A DNA stretch of 64,000 nucleotides from a virus (taxonomy: Duplodnaviria > Heunggongvirae > Uroviricota > Caudoviricetes), in IMG/VR virus record IMGVR_UViG_3300031857_000056, positions 38,590 through 102,589 of that record. One strand, written 5' to 3'. The first letter of the stretch is position 1; each line of letters starts with the position of its first letter. The notes beneath the pieces were generated by a model, which was not told where the DNA came from, did not search any database, and saw nothing but the letters and a program-made list of their open reading frames with translations. Below, one piece after another: positions 2,060 to 52,159 of this stretch. Both the position numbers and the translations under genes were made by a program.

Positions 2060-2070
2060 TTATAGTATAT

Positions 2071-2775: not shown

Positions 2776-2784
2776 TTATAGTAT

Positions 2785-3495
2785 ATGGGAATAGCCAGAG
2801 GTCCAAAAATTGTAACAAGCGGTTTATTATTAGCACTAGATGCGGCCGATAAAAACAGTTACGCTGGTAGCGGCACAGCTTGGCGAGATTTGAGTGGTAA
2901 TAGTAATAATGGCACATTGACAAATGGACCTACATTTAGTGCGGGTAATCAAGGAAGTATCGTTTTTGATGGCACAAATGATTACGTTGATACAGTTAAT
3001 ACCGGAACAACTTTTCAATTTGCAAATGTCACATTTACTGTGAGTTTATGGATAAAAACAAGCGCTACAAGTGGTGTTATTATTTCTAAAGGTGCAACTG
3101 CTTCTACGGCAGGTTGGCTGTTTCAATTTAACTCCGAAGGAACAGTTTCTGGTACTACAAAAGGTTCTGATGGTACTAATACTTATAACAGAGCAAGCAC
3201 AGCAACAGTCAATAATAATACTTGGAGAAATATAGTATCAGTATATACAACTAATACAACAACTCTTGCGAGTAATACAACATCAATATATATAGATGGT
3301 GTTTTAAGTAATGGTACAGGTACATTAGGCGGATTAGTATATGCGACAACTACAGATACTGTTCAAATAGGTAGAAGACCTTCCGGTGCTTATTGGTCCG
3401 GCTCTGTATCTAATTTATTGATATACAACAGAGCATTAACCGCAACAGAAATCTTACAAAACTATAACGCAACAAAAGGTAGATACGGACTATAA
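2785..3495 (+). CDS. LamG-domain protein, paralog 3
   Basis: Same motifs. Forms the third tandem copy. Confidence 0.65.
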   Translation: MGIARGPKIVTSGLLLALDAADKNSYAGSGTAWRDLSGNSNNGTLTNGPTFSAGNQGSIVFDGTNDYVDTVNTGTTFQFANVTFTVSLWIKTSATSGVIISKGATASTAGWLFQFNSEGTVSGTTKGSDGTNTYNRASTATVNNNTWRNIVSVYTTNTTTLASNTTSIYIDGVLSNGTGTLGGLVYATTTDTVQIGRRPSGAYWSGSVSNLLIYNRALTATEILQNYNATKGRYGL

Positions 3496-3500
3496 AATTT

Positions 3501-3773
3501 ATGAGTGAAACAAACGTAACAATATACGAGGATAGAGAATTTATGATATTCAATGTAAGTGAATTGAATCTTGTAGATTTCACTAAAGTGGAAGAAACTT
3601 CAATCGATACTGTAAGAAAAAGTGTTGACCAAACCAAAACATTTTGTAAATGGGATGGCGCAACACCTGAATTCTTCAGTCAAATGACCACCAAAGAAGG
3701 TCCATACACTTACCCCGAAATATTAGATATACTAGCTACACCCGAATGGACAGATCCTAATCCTCCATTCTGA
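3501..3773 (+). CDS. hypothetical protein
   Basis: ATG ORF of 90 aa. Confidence 0.4.
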   Translation: MSETNVTIYEDREFMIFNVSELNLVDFTKVEETSIDTVRKSVDQTKTFCKWDGATPEFFSQMTTKEGPYTYPEILDILATPEWTDPNPPF

Positions 3774-3812
3774 TCTATTTATAGTTTTGGTTTATAATAT
3801 GTATATAAACCA

Positions 3813-6263: not shown

Positions 6264-6287
6264 CAGTGTTTTAATATTTATTAAAGA

Positions 6288-18589: not shown

Positions 18590-18954
18590 GAGATAAAATT
18601 ATAATATATAGCGTTCATGACAAAACGAGCAGAGAATTTGTTGCTGCATATGGTAACAGAAACGACGTTACTGTGTTGGAAGATGACGGATATAGTGTTC
18701 GAATAAAATATCCATACATTAGTGCTTTTCCAACTGTAATAATAAATACACCTTCATATACGGAGTCTTTTATTGTAGATGAAGGTGGAGGCGGTGCATT
18801 TGTAAATTTAGATTCTATTGGAAATGAAACAATAGTGCCAGAAGATGTAGAATATATTAGATCTCCTAAAGATTGGAATGAAGTACAACAACGTATTGAT
18901 TATTGGGAAAACAAAGTGCCCAATTGGAAACAAACTGATACTAGATATTTATGA
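18586..18954 (+). CDS. hypothetical protein (paralog of 20220..20549)
   Basis: 'MRDKIIIYSVHDKTSREFVAAYGNRNDVTVLEDDG' and 'DYWENKVPNWKQTD' shared with the downstream copy. ATGA overlap with neighbours. Confidence 0.5.
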   Translation: MRDKIIIYSVHDKTSREFVAAYGNRNDVTVLEDDGYSVRIKYPYISAFPTVIINTPSYTESFIVDEGGGGAFVNLDSIGNETIVPEDVEYIRSPKDWNEVQQRIDYWENKVPNWKQTDTRYL

Positions 18955-19625
18955 CAAGATATACCATTTTAGGCGAACGTAGATCAGGTACTAATTTTTT
19001 GCAACATTGTATAACTGACAACTTCAATTTACAATTAGATTGGTTAAAAGGATGGAAACATTTTTTTGGATGTAATGGTTATGAAGATAAATTGAAGAAT
19101 AACCAAGACGTAATATACTTGTGTATTGTTAGAAATCCAATTGATTATTTTGTATCATTTTATAATTCTAAATTGATGCAAAGTGAAGAACGTACAAAAG
19201 ATATTGAAACGTTTTTATTATCAGAATTTTATTCAGTTTATAACTATAAAAACGGATTAATTGACGTATCAGACGACTATAATTTTAAAAATAACAATAA
19301 GCGTTACAAAAACATATTTGAAATGCGATCCGTTAAATGTAAATATTTGTTAGATGATATGCCTAATTTAGTGAGTAAATATCATTTTATAAGATATGAA
19401 GATTTAAAACATAATACTAATACTGTATTGAATACAATTAGTGATAAATTTAATCTTATAAAAAAGAATGACAATTATTTAATAAATACAAATTATGTCG
19501 GTGTAAAAATTAATGGAGGTGTTATAACAGAAAATTATCAAGTTGAAGATAAAATAAAACAGATAATATATAACAATATAGATTTATCGACAGAACATAG
19601 AATGGGTTATTTGACCGATATATGA
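18951..19625 (+). CDS. sulfotransferase-family protein (PAPS-dependent)
   Basis: 5'-PSB-like 'GERRSGTNFL' and 3'-PB-like 'IVRNPIDYFVSFY' (RxPxDxxxS) motifs. Confidence 0.5.
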   Translation: MTRYTILGERRSGTNFLQHCITDNFNLQLDWLKGWKHFFGCNGYEDKLKNNQDVIYLCIVRNPIDYFVSFYNSKLMQSEERTKDIETFLLSEFYSVYNYKNGLIDVSDDYNFKNNNKRYKNIFEMRSVKCKYLLDDMPNLVSKYHFIRYEDLKHNTNTVLNTISDKFNLIKKNDNYLINTNYVGVKINGGVITENYQVEDKIKQIIYNNIDLSTEHRMGYLTDI

Positions 19626-20185
19626 AATTATACTCATATGATATAACTGAATTTAATTTTAAAGAGCAATTACAAACTGTTTTGAACGTGTCTAATTTAG
19701 ATGATTTGGGGGAAAACAAAGATAAAGAGAAACTGTATTCTGAGTATATTTTGGGTAAACAGTTTTTAGATATGTATGTACAGTTTATAAAAAAATATGT
19801 TAGAAATTTGTACGATGACGTTATAGCATATCAAACTAAACCAGTATGTAGATTGGTATATAAAAATAAATTAAATATGCATAAACTTCATAAAGACAAG
19901 TGGTATAGAAGAAATACTATTTATAGTGATATGCAGATAGATAATATTTTTTTACCATTTACAAATGCTTTTGATACAAACACAATTTGGACTGAATCAG
20001 TTGAAGACAGTCACGATTTTTTTCCGATAAATTGTGATTACGGACAATTTGTACACTGGGATGGTTGCAATTTACTTCACGGTAATAAATTTAATAATAC
20101 TAACAAAACAAGACTGAGTATAGATTTTAGAGTTTATAAATACAAAAATTTATTACACCCAGAGTATTCTTTATTGAATTTTTAG
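19622..20185 (+). CDS. hypothetical protein, possible 2OG-Fe(II) oxygenase-like
   Basis: H-K-D ... 'VHWDG..LHG' ... 'RLSIDFR' resembles an HxD..H..RxS triad. Weak. Confidence 0.3.
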   Translation: MKLYSYDITEFNFKEQLQTVLNVSNLDDLGENKDKEKLYSEYILGKQFLDMYVQFIKKYVRNLYDDVIAYQTKPVCRLVYKNKLNMHKLHKDKWYRRNTIYSDMQIDNIFLPFTNAFDTNTIWTESVEDSHDFFPINCDYGQFVHWDGCNLLHGNKFNNTNKTRLSIDFRVYKYKNLLHPEYSLLNF

Positions 20186-27132: not shown

Positions 27133-27840
27133 ATGGAAAACCTTTATGTTGAAAAAATACACAATTCGATTGCCAAAGAATTGATTGTTAAACATCATTA
27201 TACACACAAGTGGACCATAGCCGAGTTGTGTATCGGAATTTACGACAAAAGCAAACGTAGTGTATTTTTTGACGTTCCTACGCTGGTTGGCGCAGTTGTA
27301 TTTGGACCCACTGCTGGCGCAAATGTGGCTAGAAGTGTGTCTCCACTATTAAATCATTCCAATTTATGGGAATTGAAACGATTGTGGGTAGCAGATGAAT
27401 TGGGTAAAAATACTGAAAGTTGGGTTATTGGTCAATGTTTGAAATATATCAAACAACATCACAGTGAAATAAAGTGTTTGATCAGTTATGCTGATCCTGA
27501 TGCTGGACACATTGGTACCATATATCAAGCTACCAATTGGCTGTATCAAGATATTGAAAGACGCAAAGGCACTAGTGGTTATATTGTTAGTTTTGACGGT
27601 GGTATTAAATGGCAACACTCACGTACATTATTCAACAAATATGGAACATTCAACTATAATAAATTGGTGGAAGTGTTACCCAGACCATTTAAGATCAAAG
27701 AATTATCAGTTAAAGAACGATATATTTATCCTTTGGGAAGCAAAGTGGAAAAGAAAAATCTGATTAAAAGTTTGAATTATCCCATTATAGAATATCCCAA
27801 ACTCAAATCAGATAAAGAAACTGTAGTGGAATTTAATTAA
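27133..27840 (+). CDS. Mom-like GNAT-fold DNA modification acyltransferase (putative)
   Basis: Pattern 'AKELIVKHHYTH......G.Y........LVGAVVFG....ANVAR' then 'LKRLWV...' then 'LISYADPDAGHIGTIYQATNW' parallels phage Mu Mom (KHHRH...AVAGRPVAR...ITYT..GASLRASGF). Recalled from memory. Confidence 0.4.
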   Translation: MENLYVEKIHNSIAKELIVKHHYTHKWTIAELCIGIYDKSKRSVFFDVPTLVGAVVFGPTAGANVARSVSPLLNHSNLWELKRLWVADELGKNTESWVIGQCLKYIKQHHSEIKCLISYADPDAGHIGTIYQATNWLYQDIERRKGTSGYIVSFDGGIKWQHSRTLFNKYGTFNYNKLVEVLPRPFKIKELSVKERYIYPLGSKVEKKNLIKSLNYPIIEYPKLKSDKETVVEFN

Positions 27841-30091: not shown

Positions 30092-31102
30092 TTATTCCTT
30101 ACTTCCAAGTAGGTAAGTATTGCTAATAGCCTTGAAACTAAACTCCCGTTCAAGACCACGAACAACTACACCTTCACGGTCAACACCCATATTCAATACA
30201 CTCTTACCTTCAGCATACTTCAACATATTATCAACCAAGTTTTCATTGGGTAATACATATCCATACTTTTCAAGTACAGGTACCATTGGCACTTCCAACC
30301 TAAACAACAACCACTCCAGTTCATCAAAGAACATACGACGACCCTTATCAATGTCATAACCAGTAAAGAAAAACAACTTGTGGTCGCTCAATCCATACAA
30401 ATTACCATTGATATTTGAACCAATCAATTCTCCCTGAAGCGCAATGTTCTTGCCATACTTAGTCAACTTATCCTTCAACTCAAGCATATTAGCCATACGC
30501 CATAGACTATTGTCATTGGTTTCAGTCAACTCCCAATTACGTCCACAAACACCAAATACACCATTATTGAAGTAACAAGTGAAACTAGTACCATCCAACT
30601 TCTCAGTGATATACACTCGTTCTCCAACAGGCACAAAACCAATGTCACTTTCAAAGTTCTGAATACGAGTTTCATCCGTCTTTGGAATAAAACTAGGAAA
30701 TGTACCCTTGATCTTTCCAGCCAATTGAGCAGGAATAGGAGGTTCATACTTGACAATATCAAGAGCCTCTGTCAAATCATCACCTTCCTTTGGATCAATT
30801 ATACCATCTGGAATTGGAGTCAATAGACCTTGACTCAATTGTCCACGCAACTTGATGGTCTTAAGACGAAATCCTTCAGCGGTTCCCATACGCTTGAAAC
30901 TACTCTTACGCAAGAATTCAAACTGAGGTCGGATAGGTAAGAAGCTGTCAATTTCATAATAAACAGCCAAGTCACCCACCTTATATTCATCCTTCTTTAC
31001 CACAACTTTCCAACCCTTGACATTAGCCACAACAATGGCATCAGCACCAACAATAGGTTGAATGTCAACAATCTTTACAACACTAGCCAATTTACGTTCC
31101 AT
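30092..31102 (-). CDS. ATP-dependent RNA ligase, Rnl5/DraRnl-like with N-terminal OB-like domain
   Basis: 'ITEKLDGTSF' KxDG motif. N-terminus 'KIVDIQPIVGADAIVVANVKGWKVVVKKDEYKVGDLAVYYEIDSFLP'. Track start at 31144 is TTG; ATG at 31102 (MERKLAS) or 31141. Confidence 0.6.
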   Translation of the reverse strand: MERKLASVVKIVDIQPIVGADAIVVANVKGWKVVVKKDEYKVGDLAVYYEIDSFLPIRPQFEFLRKSSFKRMGTAEGFRLKTIKLRGQLSQGLLTPIPDGIIDPKEGDDLTEALDIVKYEPPIPAQLAGKIKGTFPSFIPKTDETRIQNFESDIGFVPVGERVYITEKLDGTSFTCYFNNGVFGVCGRNWELTETNDNSLWRMANMLELKDKLTKYGKNIALQGELIGSNINGNLYGLSDHKLFFFTGYDIDKGRRMFFDELEWLLFRLEVPMVPVLEKYGYVLPNENLVDNMLKYAEGKSVLNMGVDREGVVVRGLEREFSFKAISNTYLLGSKE

Positions 31103-31118
31103 ATTTGTCCTTTCTAAA

Positions 31119-31436
31119 TTAATAAGAGTCAAACTCAACATCAAGTGAATTGAAATTGATAGTAGACGGATCTACATCCAAATCAATACCACCATCAACA
31201 ACAAAAACCTTCAAATCCTTCTTAATCTCGGTAGAAGGTCCACCACTACAGCTACAACCAGAGCTATAACACCAAGTGACGTTACCATCCTTGTCTACAC
31301 CAACACCCTCATAAGAGTGATGACCATAACCCCAATTCTCATTCTCAATCTCCTTGAAAATGACAACGATATCATCATCAAACTTGCTCTTAGGAAGAGC
31401 GTCCCAATTCTGTACAATGTAATCTACGATATTCAT
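31119..31436 (-). CDS. hypothetical protein
   Basis: ORF of 105 aa. Confidence 0.35.
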   Translation of the reverse strand: MNIVDYIVQNWDALPKSKFDDDIVVIFKEIENENWGYGHHSYEGVGVDKDGNVTWCYSSGCSCSGGPSTEIKKDLKVFVVDGGIDLDVDPSTINFNSLDVEFDSY

Positions 31437-32728: not shown

Positions 32729-33373
32729 TTAATGATGTTTATCTTGCTTAACGTGATTCTTGTTCATCATAATCTTCTGAATCTCTGGAAAAGACAACGG
32801 CTTGCCGTGACCATCCCAACCCACATCCAGAATTTTATTGTCTGGGTTATCAAGTTGAGTAGTTGGATTGGTATAGTGGCTGTGACCACTCAACTGCCAA
32901 GCACCCTTTTGCATCTGATTAAAAATCTGATGTGGGTAATGATGAATAACAATCATATGACCATTTACAATTAGTTCCTTGTAATAACCCAGATAAGTTA
33001 TCTTACCAACTGCATATGGATACACTTCAATATCTTTACCATATTCAGTTGCAATAGCTTCTTCATACAATCTACGAATACAACTGTTATGATTACCCCA
33101 AATATAAGCAATATTTTGACAATTGATTCGTGCTAGAATTTCATTGAACTCTGGAGGGGTAATGTTTAGACAAAAATCACCCAGATGAATTAGTGTATCT
33201 TCTGGACGCACTACTTCATTAATCTTTGCAATCAAAGCATCATCGTGTTCATAACGATCTTTATAACCTCTAGCTTCAAATATGAAACTTTGGTTATGCC
33301 GGAAATGAGTATCACTGGTAAAGAATACCTTGTGACTATCATTATGTGTTAGTTTTAGAGGTCTTTCAAACAT
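32729..33373 (-). CDS. calcineurin-like metallophosphoesterase (Pnkp-type 2',3'/3' phosphatase candidate)
   Basis: 'SDTHF' (DxH), 'GDFCL' (GD), 'GNHN', 'HH', 'GHSH'. Overlaps the kinase gene by 8 nt. Confidence 0.65.
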   Translation of the reverse strand: MFERPLKLTHNDSHKVFFTSDTHFRHNQSFIFEARGYKDRYEHDDALIAKINEVVRPEDTLIHLGDFCLNITPPEFNEILARINCQNIAYIWGNHNSCIRRLYEEAIATEYGKDIEVYPYAVGKITYLGYYKELIVNGHMIVIHHYPHQIFNQMQKGAWQLSGHSHYTNPTTQLDNPDNKILDVGWDGHGKPLSFPEIQKIMMNKNHVKQDKHH

Positions 33374-33824
33374 AAATCATTACATCAATTCCTTCATTAA
33401 AGGATGGATCTTCATATTTTGATAGCATCCTATCAATAATATTTGTAGGCACAACTCTACCACCTTGTTCTCCTCGTTTCTTGTTTCTTTCAATTAATCC
33501 TTGACGATCCATCTTGAAAACAATAGCAACTACTTTTGCACCATATTTCTTTGCAGTCTTAATATAGTCACTACGTTCCTTACGGTTTACACTGGTTGCG
33601 TCAACCAATACATTTTTACCATCTTTTAGAAATTCGTCAACCTTTCTTTTGATGTGACCGAAAACAAGTGGGGTAACAGTTTGATCTTCTTCACTTTTAC
33701 CATATACAGCACGTAGTGAATCACTACTTAGATATTCAATATCTTTGTCTTTAATAAAGTTTTTTGCATATGTGGATTTACCACTTCCAGGCAATCCAAC
33801 CGCAATATAAAGTGTATTATTCAT
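33366..33824 (-). CDS. pnk: polynucleotide 5'-kinase (T4 Pnk kinase-domain-like)
   Basis: 'GLPGSGKSTYA' P-loop, 'DATSVNRKER', 'NKKRG...VP..IIDRM'. Collinear with the T4 Pnk kinase domain. Confidence 0.6.
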   Translation of the reverse strand: MNNTLYIAVGLPGSGKSTYAKNFIKDKDIEYLSSDSLRAVYGKSEEDQTVTPLVFGHIKRKVDEFLKDGKNVLVDATSVNRKERSDYIKTAKKYGAKVVAIVFKMDRQGLIERNKKRGEQGGRVVPTNIIDRMLSKYEDPSFNEGIDVMIYV

Positions 33825-36216: not shown

Positions 36217-37308
36217 TTAGTTCTTTAAGACTTGGAACATCAACTTCTTATATTCTTCCTTACCTAATGGACGATTATCCAAGAGTTTAAATACAAAAGC
36301 AGCTCTGTTTGTTTCACCATAAGATGAAATAACCAGTTGTGCTTGTTCTTTTCTGGTAGGCAATGAACGAAGTCTGTTATTCACAAAACTATTCATACCA
36401 TCCACAATCTTGTTTACTTCCTTCTTACCATCCGCAATACGGCTAATAGTACCTTTAATTTGTTCTGCTAACTCGAAATCAAAGGTGGTAAAGATATAGT
36501 TATAAAAAGTGTTGTAGTCAGGCATACCCTGTTCCAACCACACATCCATAATTTTTTCCAGTGAACTAAGTTCAGACTTTAGATGATGTAACAGGAGATA
36601 TTTAGATGCTTTAATCTTATGAATAGTCTGATCATTCTTACTATATAAGCATACGCCTTCTTTATCTTGCCACTTATCTACAATCTGTAACATATCAGTT
36701 ATATCAGTAAAAGTATAGATTTCCGGACGAAGTAAATCATACTTCTTAGCCATAGCATCCAACATATCTTGTTGTGCAAGTGAATAGTTGATATGATTAA
36801 TAAAACCAATCAACTTCCACATAGGTTCATCGCCATACGATAACACAATTTTATTGATTGGAGACAGCCATTCCCAAATGATAGAATAACCCCAAGTATC
36901 ATTGTTATCCTGTAACTTACTTAGAATAGTTGACTTGAACAATTCTAACTCAAAACCATTAGCCATAGTAGAAGCATCAACAGTTCCACGGGTTCGTAGA
37001 ATATATTGACCCTTATACTTGCTAACAATCAAAGTGCTACCGTCCAACTTTTCAACAACAGTGCAATGCTTCAATGAAGCAGGAACAGGAAAGTGTTCAG
37101 GATTCTCCCCATAGTTAGTAAACTTCGGAAATGATGCACTAATAACTTCACCCTCATAATTCACAACCACACTACGCATGTGCTTGTTGTCTTGCGTCCA
37201 CTTAGTGCCAATATTTTGGGGTTGAATCAAATGGACAATTTCACCGAAAGCGTGGAAATGGTGCACCATAAATTGAGTGCGGTCAACCTTATCTATGTCA
37301 ATTTTCAT
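36217..37308 (-). CDS. rnlA: RNA ligase 1 (T4 RnlA-like, tRNA repair)
   Basis: 'VVEKLDGSTL' KxDG, 'FPKFTNYGENPEHF' (compare T4 'KFFNLNENP'), 'EGVCLYSKNDQTIHKIKASKY' motif IV/V pattern. Confidence 0.65.
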   Translation of the reverse strand: MKIDIDKVDRTQFMVHHFHAFGEIVHLIQPQNIGTKWTQDNKHMRSVVVNYEGEVISASFPKFTNYGENPEHFPVPASLKHCTVVEKLDGSTLIVSKYKGQYILRTRGTVDASTMANGFELELFKSTILSKLQDNNDTWGYSIIWEWLSPINKIVLSYGDEPMWKLIGFINHINYSLAQQDMLDAMAKKYDLLRPEIYTFTDITDMLQIVDKWQDKEGVCLYSKNDQTIHKIKASKYLLLHHLKSELSSLEKIMDVWLEQGMPDYNTFYNYIFTTFDFELAEQIKGTISRIADGKKEVNKIVDGMNSFVNNRLRSLPTRKEQAQLVISSYGETNRAAFVFKLLDNRPLGKEEYKKLMFQVLKN

Positions 37309-41406: not shown

Positions 41407-42186
41407 TTACAGATCGCTATAGTTCTTCAGTTCAATCTTACCATTTAGTATGGTAATATACTGACTAAGATTACAATCAATACAAATGTTGTTTGCATCA
41501 ACGATATTAGCAAATCCTTCTCTATGATATTGTGCGGCTTTACCAGTTCGCCATTGATTTGTATGACCCACAATTTGTCTCAACTCTTCAATGGGTTGAA
41601 ACTCTTCGTTAAAATCACACCAAACAATACCACCACATTTGTTTCTACCACCCCTTGCATATCCAGCGCCATAAAACCAATGTGGTTCATTGATCTTTAG
41701 TTTGGTTCTAGCATCATTATCACTTTGATCCAGATACTTGAAGATAACTTCATTTGTGGCACAAATTGGAGGTAACAAACGTTTATCCAATCCAGCGTGG
41801 GTTAATAGAATATCATCTACAACAATCGACCAGTGAAACTTATCTTGTATATCACCTCTGACCTTGCCAATAACGTTATCAATTGCATCATACTTCCATT
41901 GTTCATAACCACTACACCAAGATGTAGAAGCATTAAACAGATAGTGTATATCGTGATTACCAAATAGAGTATAGTTCTTTGGGTTAGGAAGAAATACATC
42001 TCTTAGATATTTGGCTGTAGCAACATAGTCAGTAACATCATCCAAATTGAAACTATCAAACCAATCACCCAAACAAATGTTGATATCGCCATCTTCTTTG
42101 GTAAAGATGGTATCCAACTTTGTGTAATGATTATGTGGATCAGCAGCAATTACAATCTTTTGTTTATTGGAACTAAACTTTAGCAT
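41407..42186 (-). CDS. metallophosphatase (lambda-PPase/ApaH-like Ser/Thr phosphatase family)
   Basis: 'DPHNH', 'GDWFD', 'GNHD', 'THAG' motifs. Confidence 0.55.
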   Translation of the reverse strand: MLKFSSNKQKIVIAADPHNHYTKLDTIFTKEDGDINICLGDWFDSFNLDDVTDYVATAKYLRDVFLPNPKNYTLFGNHDIHYLFNASTSWCSGYEQWKYDAIDNVIGKVRGDIQDKFHWSIVVDDILLTHAGLDKRLLPPICATNEVIFKYLDQSDNDARTKLKINEPHWFYGAGYARGGRNKCGGIVWCDFNEEFQPIEELRQIVGHTNQWRTGKAAQYHREGFANIVDANNICIDCNLSQYITILNGKIELKNYSDL

Positions 42187-43429: not shown

Positions 43430-43620
43430 TTTTTTCTCAATATCGTACTATGTTTATTAACAACTTCTTTGCAAACAATACTACCTTTACTTAGTTTAGC
43501 ATAAAAGTTATCATATATATGAACTAAATCAGCAACTTCAATCTTGATACCCTCTTTTAACTTGGTATACTTTTTGATATCTGATTCAGTTAATTCAACT
43601 ACATTATCAGCGCTCTTCAT
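43426..43620 (-). CDS. hypothetical protein
   Basis: ORF of 64 aa, ATGA-coupled to neighbours. Confidence 0.3.
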   Translation of the reverse strand: MKSADNVVELTESDIKKYTKLKEGIKIEVADLVHIYDNFYAKLSKGSIVCKEVVNKHSTILRKK

Positions 43621-43997
43621 ACAGATTTATTATAGGACTCTATATAAGATTCTATGTTGAGTTTTCCTACGGGATTCATAGAGTGTACCATATAAGGCGG
43701 ATGTTTAACACCCTTGTTCATACAATATTCCACAAGCCATTTTGCACAATCATATCCAGTCTTTTCATTGTATGAATCATATGGAATATCATCACCACTC
43801 AACCCATGACCATAGTGGCAGTCTGATAAATCGTGATCATAAGTTACAAACTTAGGAAGACCACGCAGTGTAATTATATTAACAAACTCTTGATAATTTC
43901 TTACCACAGAGTAATGTTGATCTTTTGGAATATTAACCCAAGTGACATTCGTTGGAATGCGGTTGTCATCGAGAAATAAATTATAGTTGGTTATCAT
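43617..43997 (-). CDS. hypothetical protein
   Basis: ORF of 126 aa. Confidence 0.4.
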   Translation of the reverse strand: MITNYNLFLDDNRIPTNVTWVNIPKDQHYSVVRNYQEFVNIITLRGLPKFVTYDHDLSDCHYGHGLSGDDIPYDSYNEKTGYDCAKWLVEYCMNKGVKHPPYMVHSMNPVGKLNIESYIESYNKSV

Positions 43998-44609: not shown

Positions 44610-45290
44610 ATGAAAATAATATCTGGAATTTATAAACTCACATCACCGTCCGGAAAATGTTATATTGGTCAAAGTAAAAATATATATCAAAGATTTCGTG
44701 ATCACAAAAGAGCTAATAAACATAAACATTGCAAGTTATATGTTGCAATTAAAAAATACGGATACGAAAATTTTAAAAAAGAAATAATAGAAGAATGTAA
44801 CAAAGAAATTTTAGATAAAAAAGAACAATATTGGATTAAATATCACAACTCCGTTGATAACGGATATAATTGTGATTATGGTGGACAAATTCATAAAGAA
44901 TTTGGAAAAGAACATAGAGAAAAATTACGTGCAGCATTTTTAGGAAAGTATAATGGCAACCAAAATATTGAATTTTACATAGATAACATTTTGTATAAAT
45001 CAATTGGTGATGCTAGTAAAAAATTAAATATACCCCCTAAAACGATATATAATAGGTTAAATTCTAAAAACATAGAATTTGATAATTATAAATATAAAGA
45101 TGTAAATTTAATACCAACCAGAAGTATTAGAAAATACGCATCACAACCTTTTATTATTGATGGTATAAAATATACCACTATAAAAGAAGCGTCTGAAGTA
45201 TTAAATATACCATCATCAATATTGAGAAGAAAATTAAAATCTGGTAAATTGTCAAATTCATCATATATTACACCGCAACATCCGCTTTAA
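44610..45290 (+). CDS. GIY-YIG homing endonuclease (I-TevI-like, free-standing)
   Basis: 'GIYKLTSPSGKCYIGQSKNIYQRFRDH' GIY...YIG...R motif. NUMOD-like repeats 'IDNILYKSIGDASKKLNIPPKTIYNRLNS' and 'IDGIKYTTIKEASEVLNIPSSILRRKL'. Opposite strand to its neighbours. Confidence 0.65.
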   Translation: MKIISGIYKLTSPSGKCYIGQSKNIYQRFRDHKRANKHKHCKLYVAIKKYGYENFKKEIIEECNKEILDKKEQYWIKYHNSVDNGYNCDYGGQIHKEFGKEHREKLRAAFLGKYNGNQNIEFYIDNILYKSIGDASKKLNIPPKTIYNRLNSKNIEFDNYKYKDVNLIPTRSIRKYASQPFIIDGIKYTTIKEASEVLNIPSSILRRKLKSGKLSNSSYITPQHPL

Positions 45291-46419
45291 TTGTTGGGTG
45301 TGATTGATAATCTATTAACTTAATATCATCATATTTAAAATCAAATAATGATTTTATTTCAGGATTCAACCACAATTTTGGTAACTTCATTGGTTCTCTT
45401 GACATTTGTAGTTTAATTTGATCCAAATGGTTCGTATACAAATGTGCGTCACCGATTGAGTATGTCAATGTACCAGTAGCCATATTGCTTACATGCGACA
45501 TCATTGCTACCATCAGTGCATATGATGCTATATTAAATGGCTTCCCAAGAAAAATATCATTTGATCTGATTGTCATCATTAAATTCAAACGACGGGTTGG
45601 AATATTAGCGTCATTTAATACTTTTTCATTCATTTCAGGCACAGATACCCATCCTTTATTTCCTCCTGATTTTCTGTATAAATCAAATCGTTCTTCCAGT
45701 GTCAATTCTTCTGTATTAAAAATTAGAAAACAATGACAGGGCGGTAAGGCGCAATGATCTACCCAATGTGGATGCCATGCTGATACGATCATACGACGAT
45801 CATCTGGATTGGTTTTTAGCTTGTCAATTACTTTTTGTAGTTGATCTATTCTACCAAAAAACCACGATTCGGCATAATCACCTTTTGTTCCACTCACAGT
45901 ACCTTTGGGACAAGTGCTTGCATCATTATCATTCACGGTGGTATAAAACGGAAAATTTCTCCACATTCCGCCATACGTTCCTTCACCTAATTCACCCCAT
46001 AAAAGTGCAAAATTTGGGTCATCTTTAATTTCTTGAATGAAACGCTCTTGAGTCCAAGAAGACCGCCACCGATTCCCACCCAAATCGCCATACGGATTTG
46101 CTTCATAGGTTTCTTCAGGATGAGATTTGCAAAAATCAATATAGCGTTTATATGCCCACTCATTCCAGATTCTAACGTTATTGTCAACCAGATACTTGAT
46201 ATTTGTATCACCACTAATGAACCACAGCAATTCGTGAACAATAGCTGGCCAATGAACTTTCTTTGTGGTTAATAGAGGAAATGCATTTAGATCCACATTG
46301 TATTTGGCTTGAGCACCAAAAATGCCAATGGTATCTACCCCAGTTCTGTTCTTTTTAAGTTTTCCGTTTGTCAAAATATCATTGACAATTCTGAAATATT
46401 CTGTGTCTACTTTGTTCAT
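45268..46419 (-). CDS. thyA: thymidylate synthase (ThyA family) with large internal insertions
   Basis: 'LPPCH' catalytic Cys, 'PFNIASYAL' (Asn, so uracil-specific), 'GDAHLYTNHLDQ'. 383 aa with about 100 extra aa between conserved blocks. Confidence 0.7.
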   Translation of the reverse strand: MNKVDTEYFRIVNDILTNGKLKKNRTGVDTIGIFGAQAKYNVDLNAFPLLTTKKVHWPAIVHELLWFISGDTNIKYLVDNNVRIWNEWAYKRYIDFCKSHPEETYEANPYGDLGGNRWRSSWTQERFIQEIKDDPNFALLWGELGEGTYGGMWRNFPFYTTVNDNDASTCPKGTVSGTKGDYAESWFFGRIDQLQKVIDKLKTNPDDRRMIVSAWHPHWVDHCALPPCHCFLIFNTEELTLEERFDLYRKSGGNKGWVSVPEMNEKVLNDANIPTRRLNLMMTIRSNDIFLGKPFNIASYALMVAMMSHVSNMATGTLTYSIGDAHLYTNHLDQIKLQMSREPMKLPKLWLNPEIKSLFDFKYDDIKLIDYQSHPTIKADVAV

Positions 46420-46420
46420 A

Positions 46421-46912
46421 TTATTTAGTATACATTATAACTTTGTGTAGGTCAAATTCTTTTACAACTTCTTTATGTGTAAACGTATGTTCAAACTCAG
46501 GCATAAATGTATCACCATCATAATTACCATTTATATGCGTAACATAGAACTCCTTAATGTATGGTAACAACTTAATATAAGTTTTAGCACCACCAGCAAC
46601 AATCAAATAGTCTTTTCTAAATTGACTATATGATTCAAAATCTGTCATTGTAATCAGTTGACCAGTCATAGAGTTATTGTTTACCAGATATTGATTTGGA
46701 TTTGCAGCCATTATTTTGTCTTCTTTGACTAGTACAAGACATTCTCTATTTTTTAGAAGTGGTAGTGTATCAAATGTATTTTTACCTACCACAATAGTAT
46801 TACCAACGGTAAATTCTTTAAAGTGCTTAAAATCCTCTTTTATAGATGGCCAGGGTAATCCACCATTTTTGCCTATAACCCTATTTTGTGCCATTGCAAG
46901 TATTGCTTTCAT
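46421..46912 (-). CDS. folA: dihydrofolate reductase
   Basis: 'AMAQNRVIGKNGGLPW' N-terminal motif and 'VVGKNTFDTLP'. Confidence 0.7.
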   Translation of the reverse strand: MKAILAMAQNRVIGKNGGLPWPSIKEDFKHFKEFTVGNTIVVGKNTFDTLPLLKNRECLVLVKEDKIMAANPNQYLVNNNSMTGQLITMTDFESYSQFRKDYLIVAGGAKTYIKLLPYIKEFYVTHINGNYDGDTFMPEFEHTFTHKEVVKEFDLHKVIMYTK

Positions 46913-47346
46913 TGTATATAATTTAAAATTAGTTTGATTGATTGTTCAATAGAATTTTTATCGGTGTCAATATCAAGATAGTTATTTAATGGCGGTTCAT
47001 AATAATCCACCATCTTACCCTCCCTTAATCTGTTACTATGTAGATATACTTCTTTTACAATATGTGTAGAATCATTTTTTAATGAGTCTCTTAAATTTCT
47101 GAACGGAGATACTAACGACATTATTGTGTAATTATATAATTTGTTGCTAGTTTTTGCCATTTCTATAGCTAATCTCACATTACTTTTTCTGCCACTAATA
47201 CTATAGTCTTTATTGTTACTAATACTACGTAACGTATCCCCATCAATAGTTACAGCTGTACGATTTGTTTTTGTTAAAAGTGTTTCTAATGTTAACGCCA
47301 ATGTGGTTTTACCACTATTTGGTTGACCTGTTAATATAATAATCAT
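46909..47346 (-). CDS. P-loop kinase, adenylyl-sulfate (APS) kinase-like
   Basis: 'ILTGQPNSGKTTLA', 'IDGDTLR' (compare LDGDNVR), 'SNVRLAIEMAK' (compare ENIRRVGEVAK), 'VSPFR' (compare ISPHR). Confidence 0.45.
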   Translation of the reverse strand: MIIILTGQPNSGKTTLALTLETLLTKTNRTAVTIDGDTLRSISNNKDYSISGRKSNVRLAIEMAKTSNKLYNYTIMSLVSPFRNLRDSLKNDSTHIVKEVYLHSNRLREGKMVDYYEPPLNNYLDIDTDKNSIEQSIKLILNYIQ

Positions 47347-47990
47347 AACAATATTTTCTTTTCGTGTTTTACCACAACTTCAGGATGTACCCAAACATCA
47401 ATACCACATTCTTTTACCAAATGACAAAAGCTTACGTCTTCCATTGTAAACTCCGTAACATTGCCAAATTGTTTCCAAATTGGTCTAAACCATGGATATT
47501 TCAATTTTTCAAATACACCCCGTTTTATAAGTATAAAGCCAAATCCAGTGTAGTCTACTGTAAATGGATCTTTGAATTGTTTTAATTTATCGAAAGTTAA
47601 AAATTCAAAACTACCATACTTCTTAAAATGATCTTCGTTCCAATCTTTTACAGTAGCATAGTGCGTACCATCTTGCATTAGATATAAACCAGATGCAATA
47701 TCTTTCTTTATATTGAATAGCTTAATGAAGTCATCCACTTTGAACATATTGTCACTATCAATCCAAAGTATATAATCATATTCGATTCTACCTTGCCATG
47801 GCTTTTGATTTTCTCCAGCATTAGAATCACCACCCAAACACATATTACGTACATAATAGATGTTACACGATTCTCTACGAGAAAGTATAGGAGTTATTTT
47901 GTTATGAATACACCAATTATAAAATGGTATAAAACTATCTAACCACTGACCAGAGAAATTATTGCCGGGTAAACAAATTATTAATCTCAT
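47343..47990 (-). CDS. glycosyltransferase (GT-A fold, DxD)
   Basis: 'ILWIDSDNMF' DxD motif, 215 aa. Confidence 0.45.
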   Translation of the reverse strand: MRLIICLPGNNFSGQWLDSFIPFYNWCIHNKITPILSRRESCNIYYVRNMCLGGDSNAGENQKPWQGRIEYDYILWIDSDNMFKVDDFIKLFNIKKDIASGLYLMQDGTHYATVKDWNEDHFKKYGSFEFLTFDKLKQFKDPFTVDYTGFGFILIKRGVFEKLKYPWFRPIWKQFGNVTEFTMEDVSFCHLVKECGIDVWVHPEVVVKHEKKILL

Positions 47991-48736
47991 GATTTAAAAA
48001 ACAAATTGTTTTGTACAAACAAGTTACCTTTATAACCTTTCCAACCATAGTGAGTCAAGTTACAAGTGGTATCTACATATATCTTACCACCGATACTTCT
48101 ATAAAGATTACAAAAGCCATAATCTTCACTTTCATATTTCTTTGTCTTTTCATTTATTTTACATGGAAAGAAATCATAGAACTTATCCCCATATCCCATA
48201 TACCCATCAATGTCATTCTTATATGCTATATTAGGCATTTCTCTAGAAATTTGATTGAAGACACGTTTCTTGAATAACATGAATCCAGTAGCAGCATAAT
48301 TTACTTCTTCAATGTTTTTCATTTCGGGATTGAGTTTAATTTCTGTAGCAAAGTCGGTACATAGTTCTTCGTAATTATCACCGATCATTTCTGGTCCTTG
48401 TTTTGCTAACAACTTTACTTTAGACGAATTAATATACTTCTTGGGATATAAACCTGAAATAACATCTTTATCAGCCTTTAACAATGAAAAGAAACTCTCG
48501 GGTTCAAATGATATATCACTATCAATGAACATCATATAATCACAATCCGGTTGATTTAGAAAATTAGCAGCTGCAGCATTTCTAGCTCTAGCAATCAAAC
48601 TTTCAAAGTATATACAATCCAAACTAAATGATATACCCCTACGTTGTCCCTCAAATATCAACTTCATCACACTAAACATAAAGTGTGATAGTACAGTATG
48701 ATTATAACAAATCACAGGCAAATAAACTTTGGTCAT
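47987..48736 (-). CDS. glycosyltransferase family-2-like (GT-A)
   Basis: N-terminal 'VICYNHTV', 'MMFIDSDISFEPESF' DxD, 'DVISGLYPKK'. Confidence 0.5.
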   Translation of the reverse strand: MTKVYLPVICYNHTVLSHFMFSVMKLIFEGQRRGISFSLDCIYFESLIARARNAAAANFLNQPDCDYMMFIDSDISFEPESFFSLLKADKDVISGLYPKKYINSSKVKLLAKQGPEMIGDNYEELCTDFATEIKLNPEMKNIEEVNYAATGFMLFKKRVFNQISREMPNIAYKNDIDGYMGYGDKFYDFFPCKINEKTKKYESEDYGFCNLYRSIGGKIYVDTTCNLTHYGWKGYKGNLFVQNNLFFKS

Positions 48737-48969
48737 AGTATGATCTTTTCCTTCTCAAAATATTCAGTAACTTCATCATTCCAAGGCTTGTTGATGTCAT
48801 CTAACTTATTAGCAATAGAACGCATTATATGTGACGGCCAGCAACCATCATTACTTGGCCAGAAATAATAATAACCATCAACATCCATAATAAGTTCACC
48901 AACTAAATGATTATTCGGAGTCAGTACGTGGAACTTCTGGTTGTTGATCTGTTTGTAAATTAGATTCAT
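48733..48969 (-). CDS. hypothetical protein
   Basis: ORF of 78 aa. Overlaps 48911..49411 by 59 nt, so one of the two starts is uncertain. Confidence 0.3.
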   Translation of the reverse strand: MNLIYKQINNQKFHVLTPNNHLVGELIMDVDGYYYFWPSNDGCWPSHIMRSIANKLDDINKPWNDEVTEYFEKEKIIL

Positions 48970-49411
48970 TTTTTTCTAAAACAATATTTGTAGTACCCTC
49001 GTAATTTACCCCACCAATAACATTAATAATAAATTTGTTGGTGATGGTTCCCTCCAAGTTACTAGTAACAATATAACTCTCTTGTACGCTTCCGTCAAGA
49101 AAAAACACAATTTTGGTAGAACTTGATTCAAGTATCTTCAAGTCATTTGTAACAGCATCCATCAAATAAACATCATCAAATGAACTATACATATTATAGT
49201 TTTCATCAAACGTAAGTTCAAACTCACGTTGTTGAAATGCTGCTTGATGTTTGAGATTAATCAATAGTGTCTTTAAGTTTTCTCTAGCTTCAAAATATCT
49301 ATTGTTACCAACTAGACTATCATAGTTGATAACAATTGCACCAATAATACCAAGCAATATGGTTATGGCTAATACTAACTCTATTAGTGTAAATGCTTTA
49401 TTGTTTTTCAC
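48911..49411 (-). CDS. type IV pilin/pseudopilin-like protein (prepilin-type N-terminus)
   Basis: 'MKNNKAFTLIELVLAITILLGIIGAIV' class-III signal-like N-terminus with Ala rather than Gly at -1. Confidence 0.45.
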   Translation of the reverse strand: MKNNKAFTLIELVLAITILLGIIGAIVINYDSLVGNNRYFEARENLKTLLINLKHQAAFQQREFELTFDENYNMYSSFDDVYLMDAVTNDLKILESSSTKIVFFLDGSVQESYIVTSNLEGTITNKFIINVIGGVNYEGTTNIVLEKNESNLQTDQQPEVPRTDSE

Positions 49412-50426: not shown

Positions 50427-51452
50427 TCAACGTATATAATAAAGAACACGTTGCAAAACATATTGATAGGTATCAAACCATTTTTTATTACCCAACTGAT
50501 ATTTTGGTATCTTACTCAAGTCAATTGATTCACTATAAATTGCATATGAACTTAAATAAGCATCATTACAATTGGCGTGTTGTTCATAATGATTAGGCAT
50601 TGGTATCATCAACAATGGTTTGTTTTGATATATAGCTTCAGCACTTGTTTCAAATCCACCACTACATACTACTGCCTTACATACCTTCATCTTTTCTTGA
50701 AATAGTTTACCATCAAGATTAAATAATTTTAAATTTGGTAGTTCATCATATTGTTTGGTTAATTTGGTAAAACAATGAATATTGATATCTGGATATTTTT
50801 TTGCTTGATTAATCAATTGCGGTAACATATCTTCATTCATTAGATATACCAACACAAAGTCTTCTTGTTTGTGTGATACACTATAACTTTCACTTCTTAA
50901 TATTGGAGGACTTGCAATCATAACATCATCATTAAATTCATAATAACTTAATGCTACGATTTTGGATCTGATACTAGTGATTTTGTTTATGATATTTAAA
51001 AATAACTTTTGTACAGGATATCCATTGATTCGTGGATATATAATAGAATCCATTGCGTATTGATGTCCAAAGCTTACATACTTTATGTTTTTAAAGAATA
51101 ATGCGGTTAGACCTACCAGTGGTTCATAATAGTTGAATATAGCATCTGGTTTTTCTTTTTGGATGATGCTACAGATTTTAATGAATGATACAATTAAGCG
51201 TGGTAATTCAAATGTGTTGTTCAATATGGTTTTCCAGATAACAACTCTACCTACACTATCAAATACAAAATCAAATCCATCATAGTCTACTACGTTAAAT
51301 TCGTCTGTAAAATATTTAGATAACCCCCGTTTCTTTTTAGCTGCAAAAGCAGTTGTTACCTCAATGCCTTGCGATTGTAGATATTGTTTGGTTGCTATAG
51401 CTTGTGTAATGTGTCCATTACCTTCAGTTTGAACTCCGAATAATATCTTCAT
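50427..51452 (-). CDS. glycosyltransferase, GT28/MGT-like
   Basis: 'ILFGVQTEGNGHITQAIA' N-terminus typical of the MurG-like GT-B family. Confidence 0.45.
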   Translation of the reverse strand: MKILFGVQTEGNGHITQAIATKQYLQSQGIEVTTAFAAKKKRGLSKYFTDEFNVVDYDGFDFVFDSVGRVVIWKTILNNTFELPRLIVSFIKICSIIQKEKPDAIFNYYEPLVGLTALFFKNIKYVSFGHQYAMDSIIYPRINGYPVQKLFLNIINKITSIRSKIVALSYYEFNDDVMIASPPILRSESYSVSHKQEDFVLVYLMNEDMLPQLINQAKKYPDINIHCFTKLTKQYDELPNLKLFNLDGKLFQEKMKVCKAVVCSGGFETSAEAIYQNKPLLMIPMPNHYEQHANCNDAYLSSYAIYSESIDLSKIPKYQLGNKKWFDTYQYVLQRVLYYIR

Positions 51453-52159
51453 AATTTGATTAGTTTTATGTCACCTTCTAATGTCTCAATTATATACGAT
51501 GTATTTTCTCCAACAATAAAACTACCACAATTGTAATAGTTTATACCATCAATAATGGTACATTCTGGTTTGTGTATATGACCGCATAAAATACTATCGT
51601 GTCCACTATTTTTACAATAGTGTACAACGGTAGCTTCATAATTGCCTATGTACTTAACTGCTTCTTTTGCTTTTTGTTTGAGAAAGTTACTGAAGCTAAA
51701 TTTGAATATTCTAAATAGTTTATTTACCGACAAACTATAATCGTATATTACTGAACCAATATGTTGTATCCACTTATTTTTGGTTACTAATCCATCAAAT
51801 TGATCTCCGTGAATAATTAATATTCTTTCGTTTTTTAATGTGGTATGAGTGATTTCTCTTACAACTTGTATATTATCGCCAAAGTATATGTCATTGAATG
51901 GTTCGATAAAGTCATCGTGGTTACCCCAAATATAATATACTTTGGTTCCTTTACGACTCATACGCAATATTTTTTGCAATATTGTGTTATAATTGCTATG
52001 CCACTTAAACTTTCTACTCAATAACCAACCATCAATAAAATCACCTACAATATACAAATATTCACATTCAACTTCACTTAATAGTTTCAATAATTTTTCG
52101 TGGTTACAAAAATCACTACCTATATGACAATCACTTATAAATAATGTGCGTACTTTCAT
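51449..52159 (-). CDS. metallophosphoesterase, LpxH-like
   Basis: 'LFISDCHIG', 'YIVGDFIDGW', 'WGNHDDF', 'GHIH'. Confidence 0.55.
   Translation of the reverse strand: MKVRTLFISDCHIGSDFCNHEKLLKLLSEVECEYLYIVGDFIDGWLLSRKFKWHSNYNTILQKILRMSRKGTKVYYIWGNHDDFIEPFNDIYFGDNIQVVREITHTTLKNERILIIHGDQFDGLVTKNKWIQHIGSVIYDYSLSVNKLFRIFKFSFSNFLKQKAKEAVKYIGNYEATVVHYCKNSGHDSILCGHIHKPECTIIDGINYYNCGSFIVGENTSYIIETLEGDIKLIKL

Follow-up and report, generated by a model that had tools for sequence, protein, structure and literature searches.

The 64,000-nucleotide stretch of AT-rich DNA analysed here, called the window below (positions 38,590 to 102,589 of the tailed-phage IMG/VR record IMGVR_UViG_3300031857_000056; GC about 30-44% across 2-kb bins), encodes on its minus strand a P-loop kinase of 145 amino acids (aa) at 46909-47346 that groups, in sequence and in predicted fold, with the adenylyl-sulfate kinases. 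We propose, with a probability of roughly 0.52, that this kinase is the phage's own supply of 3'-phosphoadenosine 5'-phosphosulfate (PAPS) for a fibre-associated system of sulfation and glycosylation. In the proposed mechanism the kinase, a member of the viral 'cysC' clade, would phosphorylate the 3'-OH of adenosine 5'-phosphosulfate (APS) to give PAPS. No partner adenylyltransferase was found in the available DNA, so the host would have to provide the APS. A sulfotransferase of the phage itself, encoded in the tail-fibre region (18951-19625), would consume the PAPS, and two GT-A glycosyltransferases (GTs) encoded immediately upstream of the kinase would glycosylate the same acceptor. The best candidate for that acceptor is a Ser/Thr-rich, (GTS)n collagen-like fibre; the alternative is a host envelope glycan.

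The kinase matches Pfam APS_kinase (PF01583) with an E-value of 4e-16 (59.8 bits, cut-off 21.1), whereas its matches to the thymidylate kinase and dNMP kinase families of PHROG have E-values of 1.5e-3 and 4.5e-3. It is annotated by the Joint Genome Institute (JGI) as 'adenylylsulfate kinase', and its 22 best solved sequence relatives are without exception APS kinases or APS-kinase domains, the closest being the archaeal APS kinase 8a8h (E 7.5e-13). An AlphaFold (AF2) model, with a predicted local distance difference test score (pLDDT) of 85 that falls below 50 at residues 111-113 and a predicted TM-score (pTM) of 0.83, leads to the same group. Each of the top 50 Foldseek matches to this model in the PDB is an APS kinase or the APS-kinase-type domain of an ATP sulfurylase (TM-score 0.72-0.87, E 1e-9 to 4e-7), with no Tmk or dNMP kinase among them. 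An earlier reading made from the sequence only had described the enzyme as resembling adenylyl-sulfate kinase rather than a dNMP kinase, citing a P-loop and the motifs IDGDTLR and VSPFR. The motifs are present, the P-loop as GQPNSGKTT, and the assignment is upheld by sequence and by predicted fold: the comparison of 46909-47346 with the two families sides with CysC (4e-16, as against 1e-3 to 5e-3 for the thymidylate and dNMP types).

The residues expected to bind APS are also conserved. A HMMER search with the kinase against 1.84 billion cluster representatives gave 1,525 hits; among the best 150 of these, 119 are 135-180 aa long, mostly aligned over nearly the whole query. Conservation was read from an alignment of these 119 representatives, which are at most 50% identical to each other. 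Conserved in it are the P-loop GQPxSGKTT, D35-G-D37, R40, N45, Y48, G52-R53, N56, S80-P81, R86 and Y116-E-x-P119; K13 and D35-G36-D37 reach at least 90%, R40 and R53 97-99% and N56 94%. In CysC of M. tuberculosis, APS is contacted by Lys456, Asp480, Arg483, Phe492, Arg497 and the backbone of Ile523/Ser524, and from the lid by Lys562 and Phe576 (PMC4373884). Mapped by alignment, not through a ligand-bound structure, the core contacts correspond to K13, D37, R40, Y48, R53 and V79/S80 of the phage kinase, and they are 84-99% conserved in the 119 representatives with the exception of S80 (55%), which is a backbone contact. By this alignment every core APS contact is kept, and the lid contacts are not. 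In its P-loop, DGDxxR motif, (I/V)SP backbone clamp and C-terminal YExP motif, in an aromatic residue, two Arg and an Asn that face APS, and also in its fold, the kinase resembles CysC and the APS kinase domain of PAPS synthases (PF01583).

Comparisons within the lineage of the window use 19 related loci from metagenomes and IMG/VR (numbered with the prefix L), and the wider kinase family is represented by 40 further IMG/VR loci with a genuine member, found by scanning with a degenerate P-loop DNA pattern. The kinase lies next to a dihydrofolate reductase (DHFR) gene in 18 of the 19 related loci, even where kinase identity falls to 48% and the surrounding genes differ, as would be expected of a non-orthologous dTMP or dNMP kinase that completes a module with DHFR and the adjoining thymidylate synthase (ThyA). 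We consider this highly improbable, since sequence, fold and acceptor-site residues are all of the APS-kinase type, since the outgroup locus L020 has a small nucleotidyltransferase gene (c1) downstream of its kinase and no DHFR in the locus, and since 38 of the 40 wider-family loci lack both DHFR and ThyA. An identity as Tmk or as a dNMP kinase of the T4 gp1 type was likewise rejected on the weak PHROG scores and the composition of the top 50 fold matches.

The proposed consumer of PAPS is a 224-aa type-1 sulfotransferase-like protein (18951-19625, plus strand) within an array of paralogous fibre genes. It passes the Pfam Sulfotransfer_1 model and carries both PAPS-binding motifs, a 5'-phosphosulfate-binding motif (GERRSGTN) and a 3'-phosphate-binding motif (VRNPIDYFVS); the invariant residues of its family are E9, R10, G13, T14, R61 and P63. 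Together with orf187 (187 aa, 19622-20185, plus strand, no Pfam match), with which it co-varies, it forms a variable cassette that is present in three fibre regions (L050, L052, L053) and absent from four (L056, L061, L064, L066). The last two lie on the same contigs as the kinase loci L010 and L011, and instead of the type-1 cassette they have an enzyme of the Sulfotransfer_3 type that shares 43-45% identity with the one in L020. Four contigs of the window lineage allowed a check of both regions, and every one has the kinase and a fibre-region sulfotransferase, which is of type 1 in the window and in 3300042908_000899 and of type 3 in 3300028569_000044 and 3300032330_001647.

The type-3 enzyme (274 aa) belongs to a three-gene cassette of the fibre region (L058 13734-16335; L064 15454-18886; L066), in which it is followed first by a GT-A of 258-271 aa and then by an ORF of 321 aa. 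The cassette GT-A is phrog_1574-like, as are the GTs beside the window kinase, and about 25% identical to one of them (GT-A2); a solved-structure sequence search with the 321-aa partner gave nothing significant. All three genes are joined by 4-nt overlaps in L058, and the sulfotransferase and GT-A are about 870 bp apart in L064. The L020 kinase is 47% identical to that of the window and stands in the order 1242-aa collagen protein, orf102 (102 aa), sulfotransferase, 702-aa GT (on the opposite strand), kinase, c1. The L020 sulfotransferase matches Sulfotransfer_3 with an E-value of 7e-23 and has protein-tyrosine sulfotransferases as its best solved relatives (E 2e-5), and the 702-aa GT has two domains, GT4 and GT9-like. 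The kinase of L105 begins 44 nt after the sulfotransferase, which itself follows a collagen protein and orf102, and in L077 the kinase and c1 are followed, further along, by a homologue of the 702-aa GT. Three independent adjacencies therefore connect the enzyme types: the window has the kinase beside GT-A, L058, L064 and L066 have a GT-A beside the sulfotransferase, and L105 has the sulfotransferase beside the kinase (in L020 the GT lies between them). A neighbourhood of sulfate-activation kinase, sulfotransferase and glycosyltransferase is thus recurrent, and the earlier suggestion that the kinase might provide PAPS for the sulfotransferase at 18951 gains considerable comparative-genomic support.

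The two GTs of the window are paralogues (GT-A1, 215 aa, 47343-47990; GT-A2, 249 aa, 47987-48736; both on the minus strand) that match phrog_1574, a PHROG family of unknown function, with E-values of 7e-58 and 1e-40. The DxD motifs ascribed to them are present as DSD in each, and this DSD (D78, D80) is invariant in the GT-A1 family; the GT family has more than 1,000 homologues. The Pfam Glycos_transf_2 score is under the cut-off (16.3 against 23.3), so that no specific CAZy family is established, and GT-A2 also has weak Anp1 and GT2 matches; solved-structure sequence searches gave nothing significant for either protein. The Foldseek matches of an AF2 model of GT-A1 (pLDDT 92.8) are all GT-A enzymes. 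Nearest to it in the PDB are COLGALT1 (a collagen hydroxylysine-galactosyltransferase), the GT domain of LH3, Mimivirus R699, Mnn9 and ppGalNAc-Ts, a list that includes protein O-glycosyltransferases of collagen and mucin.

The GT pair is found in seven of the related loci (L010, L011, L013-L017) and is absent from eight (L001-L007 and L012), where other genes precede the kinase. In three more (L018, L019, L021) a single, different and more distant GT-A of the family lies between DHFR and ThyA in place of the pair. The string of six genes in the window is best explained as a mosaic, in which a lineage-conserved kinase-DHFR-ThyA backbone has received a two-gene GT-A cassette upstream, here after the 78-aa orf78. 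With the kinase kept in every one of these loci, it is conceivable that the pair is an independent cassette altering host envelope glycans (lipopolysaccharide or capsule), for example in superinfection exclusion, and that its place beside the kinase is accidental. The GTs of pelagimyophages have been interpreted in this way (PMC7029224). Moreover, the family is widespread in cyanomyoviruses, whose hypothetical proteins are about 40% identical to the window GTs and have no kinase nearby; the homologue in P-SSM2 sits between two 2-oxoglutarate-Fe(II) (2OG-Fe(II)) oxygenases, beside baseplate genes. An accidental neighbourhood nevertheless seems unlikely to us in view of the paralogous GT-A in the sulfotransferase cassette, with its 4-nt overlap in L058, of the third family GT-A inserted between DHFR and ThyA, and of a homologue beside a fibre-like Peptidase_S74 protein in an Elusimicrobia metagenome-assembled genome (MAG). 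A host glycan as acceptor would in any case be compatible with a PAPS supply by the kinase.

In that MAG (GCA_028718185.1; L073 8001-10002) the GT-A1 homologue is 55% identical and lies directly upstream of the gene for the Peptidase_S74-domain protein, and three paralogues of about 231 aa and dTDP-sugar genes are found near it. The C-terminus of a phage fibre gene of L064 (19612-20670) resembles the same S74 protein.

The candidate acceptor in the window is a collagen-like tail-fibre protein of 1207 aa (6288-9911, plus strand) with PHROG tail-fibre and collagen-like matches. It contains 146 G-X-Y triplets, almost all of them GTS or GSS; Ser and Thr are abundant and the repeats hold no Lys or Pro, which suggests that any glycosylation would be on Ser/Thr and not on hydroxylysine. 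The L020 fibre (2857-6585; Pfam Collagen E 7.5e-59) has 144 triplets, mostly GTS, GVN and GID, and this (GTS)n-style protein is encoded directly upstream of the L020 sulfotransferase, GT and kinase. In both fibres the triplet runs are interspersed with repeated LYTGSTYPITASWA motifs. The fibre is an attractive candidate for the acceptor, and host envelope glycans are equally possible. No collagen-like ORFs were found near the kinase in the 40 wider-family loci, which are short, and the link to fibres is therefore limited to the window lineage and L020-like phages. Collagen glycosylation by human COLGALT1/LH3 and by Mimivirus L230/R699 offers a parallel, in that these systems provide the best structural matches of GT-A1 and in that two tandem GT-A genes occur here together with a long collagen-like fibre. 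Unlike in those systems, the repeats are GTS/GSS without Lys or Pro, identity is about 10%, and no hydroxylase was found among the window ORFs scanned. BclA of B. anthracis is a further glycosylated collagen-like protein. The fibre module of the window also encodes three tandem paralogous Laminin_G_3 (concanavalin-like lectin) proteins of about 230 aa (1376-3495, plus strand; L005 6692-8799), and in L005, L006 and L012 this module is immediately followed by the kinase-DHFR-ThyA trio, which in the window is 45 kb away from it.

A number of observations weigh against the proposed PAPS supply and have to be set beside this evidence. The kinase is under the NCBIfam cut-offs (68.3 against 138.7 for the equivalog, and 55.4 against 244 for the subfamily). 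Unlike canonical CysC it has 145 aa instead of about 170-210, a P-loop of the form GQPxSGKTT instead of GxSGxGKS(T/S), half the equivalog score and a deletion in the lid, where the canonical enzymes hold the APS-contacting Lys and Phe and an Arg that stacks on the ATP adenine. The canonical lid is about 30 residues long, its Lys reaching the ribose 2'-OH and its Phe stacking on the adenine of APS, and the kinase does not have such a lid. In the alignment its residues 105-115 stand for residues 127-157 of 8a8h, about 20 lid residues are missing, and only R106, R108 and K111 remain in the short loop. This short-lid form is shared by a large viral clade of homologues of 140-165 aa, and its wide occurrence among the representatives indicates a clade of its own and not a truncation artefact. 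As far as sequence tells, the kinase would work like an APS kinase, with strict membership failing on the lid and the equivalog score; the same two features mean that its substrate could differ from APS. The window sulfotransferase passes its Pfam model only narrowly (27.1 against 22 bits), and just three of 12 members of its family match a sulfotransferase model; neither the protein nor its family profile found a match among PDB sequences. It is encoded 28 kb from the kinase and on the opposite strand. The structural matches of GT-A1 (TM-score 0.43-0.62, about 10% identity) are at the generic GT-A level and of low specificity, and the kinase is retained in all relatives without the GT pair, indicating that it does not need those GTs. 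The supply of APS by the host is an assumption, and the putative linkage of kinase, sulfotransferase and GT is one of guilt by association. Finally, c1 is paired with the kinase in 31 of the 40 wider-family loci and does not occur in the sampled DNA of the window lineage.

The c1 gene encodes a protein of 115-133 aa with the motifs GRWQPWHxGH and ISATKIR (examples are L020 10457-10861 and L092 10976-11377). It occurs next to the kinase in at least seven contexts and in nearly all cases directly downstream, as it does in the nearest outgroup, L020. In the window, in all window-lineage loci sampled and in about 10 kb beyond one window edge it was not found. In the Xylella phage Sano the two are fused in gp35 (245 aa; L199 4584-5321), with the kinase N-terminal and c1 C-terminal; nearby, gp33 has a weak Sulfotransfer_4 match and gp34 a NADAR domain. 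Corresponding genes that c1 matches are found in the Xylella phages Sano, Salvo and Bacata, in Xanthomonas/Stenotrophomonas relatives and in Clavibacter phage 33, and six of these phage records annotate the gene as 'kinase' or 'adenylylsulfate kinase'. The protein matches Pfam CTP_transf_like (25.5 bits, cut-off 21) and has a sub-threshold match to ATP sulfurylase (E 0.004), which suggests that it may be a small sulfate adenylyltransferase; its best solved relatives are archaeal NMN adenylyltransferases (E 1e-6). From these matches c1 may be either a minimal ATP sulfurylase or the maker of another adenylylated substrate.

The first of these possibilities leads to a bolder proposal, which we hold to be possible but doubtful: aquatic phages would carry a virus-specific minimal PAPS synthase, made up of the lid-less kinase and, for most lineages, a neighbouring or fused c1 as a tiny ATP sulfurylase of a new kind, for sulfating and, together with GT-A enzymes, glycosylating their own (GTS)n fibres, and the window phage would have lost the sulfurylase-like half and would use host APS. 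On this proposal the widespread viral 'cysC' would serve to decorate virions instead of assimilating sulfur for the host. The second possibility implies that the kinase 3'-phosphorylates an Ado-5'-P-X other than APS, where X might be CoA-like or akin to NAD or ADP-ribose, with the compound made elsewhere by c1 and here taken from host metabolism. The frequent pairing and the Sano fusion, the NMN adenylyltransferases nearest to c1, the NADAR domain of the adjoining gp34 and the remodelled lid, which helps to define the acceptor pocket, are all consistent with such a substrate. It is made quite unlikely by the near-invariance of the phosphosulfate-binding arginines R40 and R53 and of N56, by the recurrence of sulfotransferases beside the kinase in several lineages and by the ATP-sulfurylase match of c1 itself.

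Further associations in the wider family bear on the kinase. Ten of the 40 kinase loci and none of 80 control loci contain a sulfotransferase-like gene, c8, although all ten belong to one phage lineage and the family assignment of c8 is weak; a solved-structure sequence search with the c8 profile gave nothing significant. A profile comparison of the two weak sulfotransferase-like families aligned only the RNP motif region, with a probability of 17.7%. In L093 and L111 a NodU-type carbamoyltransferase and an NAD-dependent epimerase are encoded upstream of the kinase.

Viral cysC has been described before. A study of freshwater phage genomes reported 62 cysC genes, transcribed in situ (PMC10914622), and cysC has been found almost exclusively in marine and freshwater viruses, where it is under purifying selection (bioRxiv 10.1101/2021.01.05.425418). 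The viral genes form clades apart from bacterial cysC, and both studies place them in assimilatory sulfate reduction (PMC10914622; bioRxiv 10.1101/2021.01.05.425418). The window kinase is the same kind of gene, from uncultured freshwater or marine phages with large genomes, and bears the same JGI label, so it could in principle be an auxiliary metabolic gene (AMG) that boosts the host pathway from APS through PAPS and sulfite to cysteine, with no link to GTs or sulfotransferases. Neither PAPS reductase nor CysD/CysN was found near the kinase by Pfam among the genes checked, which were the called genes of L001-L007 and L020 and representatives of the neighbour clusters. Unlike in the accounts of viral cysC as an AMG, the recurrent partners here are sulfotransferases, GTs, collagen-like fibres and a small nucleotidyltransferase. 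A purely metabolic role therefore seems unlikely, with the reservation that PAPS for sulfotransferases and PAPS for CysH are compatible, so that the two roles are only partly separable. Neither of the two studies (PMC10914622; bioRxiv 10.1101/2021.01.05.425418) mentions a sulfotransferase or sulfation, and a literature search linking phage cysC as an AMG with a sulfotransferase found nothing.

What our analysis adds to the viral cysC AMGs and to the sulfate-activation clusters of giant viruses, both of which were already known, is the putative link to phage sulfotransferases. Many virome surveys count viral cysC as a sulfur-assimilation gene that alters biogeochemistry, and these ecological readings would need revision if cysC feeds phage sulfotransferases. 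In that case sulfation would join the short list of phage-directed post-translational or glycan modifications, with host-range fibres or the host surface as its target. The kinase clade and c1 would also be compact candidates for a minimal PAPS-generating system, useful for enzymatic sulfation.

Two known systems resemble the one proposed. The fibril-glycosylation clusters of giant viruses (Megavirinae) include genes for sulfate adenylyltransferase (SAT)/APS kinase, and sulfated glycans have been predicted from them (PMC9614988). In both systems viral GT genes are associated with genes for sulfate activation and with collagen-like proteins or surface fibres, and the sulfated product is a prediction from genes. 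The Megavirinae differ in being eukaryotic viruses with a full-size bifunctional SAT/APS kinase, whereas here a tailed phage has a stand-alone minimal kinase and the genes lie at two loci. The rhizobial NodP/NodQ/NodH genes are an example of dedicated extra sulfate-activation genes that feed a dedicated sulfotransferase decorating a glycan, the Nod factor. The NodU-type carbamoyltransferase beside the short kinase in L093 and L111 recalls this pathway; unlike the phage genes, the Nod genes form a bacterial symbiosis locus with full-size CysDN-type enzymes, and homology was compared for the kinase domain only.

The kinase is followed in the window by the genes of DHFR (46421-46912, minus strand; Pfam DHFR_1 E 6e-30) and ThyA (45268-46419, minus strand; 383 aa with insertions; Pfam E 5e-91). 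The position of the string had been likened to the nucleotide-modification operons of T-even phages, in which a ThyA-family enzyme would make a hydroxymethyl pyrimidine, a kinase would activate it and GTs would glycosylate the DNA. A ThyA-family gene, a P-loop kinase and GTs do lie close together here in a large phage, tightly coupled to nucleotide metabolism. The ThyA, however, passes the NCBIfam equivalogs for thymidylate synthase (NF002496, 331.2 against 325; TIGR03284, 314.6 against 108.35 bits), and its translation shows the motifs PPCH and RSND...PFNIASYAL, with the Asn motif retained. It is moreover paired with DHFR, which is required only where a true thymidylate synthase yields dihydrofolate. 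Within the part of the ORFs of the 64-kb window that was scanned, ThyA does not have the character of a ThyA-family hydroxymethylase. The kinase groups with CysC, as described above. The GT pair does not correspond to GT-B-type DNA glucosyltransferases that are co-inherited with base-modifying enzymes: the DNA glucosyltransferases of T4 have the GT-B fold, whereas the GTs here are of GT-A type, their nearest structures are protein and glycan GTs, and the cassette is dispensable in relatives that have kinase, DHFR and ThyA. Beyond the window lineage, members of the kinase family show no linkage to ThyA or DHFR; either gene is near the kinase in only two of the 40 wider-family loci, both of them close relatives, and the linkage to thymidylate genes is thus a local, lineage-specific synteny. 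The string shows no defining feature of a T-even-type system, and we reject the hypermodification reading as very improbable for this operon; as a practical result, the lead can be dropped here. The CysC-like fold and the true ThyA also argue, indirectly, against a thymidine hypermodification of the kind that uses a 5-hydroxymethyldeoxyuridine (5-hmdU) DNA kinase. The phage does have a separate candidate for DNA modification, a 235-aa protein of the Mom family (27133-27840, plus strand; PF25680 E 5.8e-44), the family of the adenine-modification enzyme of phage Mu, so that its DNA may be modified independently of this operon.

DHFR and ThyA are best read as enzymes of ordinary dTMP synthesis that are functionally unrelated neighbours of the kinase. 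In four relatives (L003, L010, L011, L014) ThyA is replaced by one that is 27-34% identical (287 aa in L003) while kinase and DHFR stay. A GIY-YIG-like ORF, probably a homing endonuclease (44610-45290, plus strand), converges on thyA and overlaps its 3' end at 45268-45290, and the swaps suggest an allele replacement driven by the endonuclease.

The order of the six genes on the minus strand (orf78, GT, GT, kinase, DHFR, ThyA) had been given correctly and matches the ORF positions exactly. The accompanying statement that ATGA-type overlaps occur throughout is slightly overstated: such overlaps join orf78 to GT-A2, GT-A2 to GT-A1, GT-A1 to the kinase and the kinase to DHFR, whereas DHFR and ThyA are separated by a gap of one base. 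No terminator-like sites were found in a scan of the minus strand from 48969 to 45268, and a promoter scan of the region was uninformative, with fewer matches than in shuffled sequence; co-transcription of the six genes is plausible from this layout. Protein P0045 (213 aa) joins residues 1-115 of the kinase to the DHFR domain (Pfam DHFR_1 and APS_kinase); it is probably not a real fusion but an artefact of gene calling or of a frameshift where the two genes overlap at ATGA.

The first gene of the overlap chain, orf78 (78 aa, 48733-48969, minus strand), has no Pfam or PHROG family match. It lies upstream of the GT pair in L010 only, and copies 42-49% identical are found elsewhere in L001, L011, L016 and L017. 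It overlaps the 3' end of a pilin-like ORF (166 aa, 48911-49411, minus strand), with which it shares 48911-48969. The latter carries an N-terminal methylation motif of the prepilin type (MKNNKAFTLIELV; Pfam N_methyl 24 bits against 21.2) and is unusual for a phage; where relatives lack the GT pair, it is conserved immediately upstream of the kinase. Some 3-5 kb upstream on the same strand (50427..52159) are a GT-B glycosyltransferase of the MJ1255/VC2487 family and an LpxH-like metallophosphoesterase (Pfam Glyco_trans_1_3 E 3e-27 and Metallophos E 1e-14; NCBIfam matches under the cut-off). The two genes are conserved upstream of the kinase in L001, L010, L011 and L013 and are possibly a further sugar-handling pair, putatively of the same pathway.

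A blastn search with the operon against 50,697 phage records returned only short ThyA matches, which points to the lack of a cultured relative. The proteins of the window also occur on a contig of 184,411 bp that is represented in NCBI, JGI, ENA and Logan data. In tblastn searches an 816-aa structural protein and the window sulfotransferase had no match, and the GT-B protein had one, on an unannotated faecal contig. A pelagimyophage identity was considered and nothing confirmed it; the DNA ligase of the phage is closest to those of alphaproteobacteria phages.

The window also carries an RNA-repair-like set of genes, all on the minus strand (30092-31144, 33366-33824, 36217-37308, 41407-42186 and 43617-43997), which comprises an Rnl2-like ligase with a PHA02142 OB domain, an AAA_33 (polynucleotide-kinase-like) P-loop kinase, a T4 Rnl1-like ligase, a metallophosphoesterase and a cREC_REC cyclic-phosphate-processing receiver domain. 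The AAA_33 kinase is a second P-loop kinase of the window, distinct from the APS-kinase homologue. Relatives (L001 1207-6157; L197 7990-8505) have an NAD-salvage set made up of NAMPT, a Nudix protein and a PRPP-synthetase-like gene, together with a 2',5'-RNA-ligase/LigT-like protein with a faint Acb1 match, near a region homologous to the right-hand end of the window.

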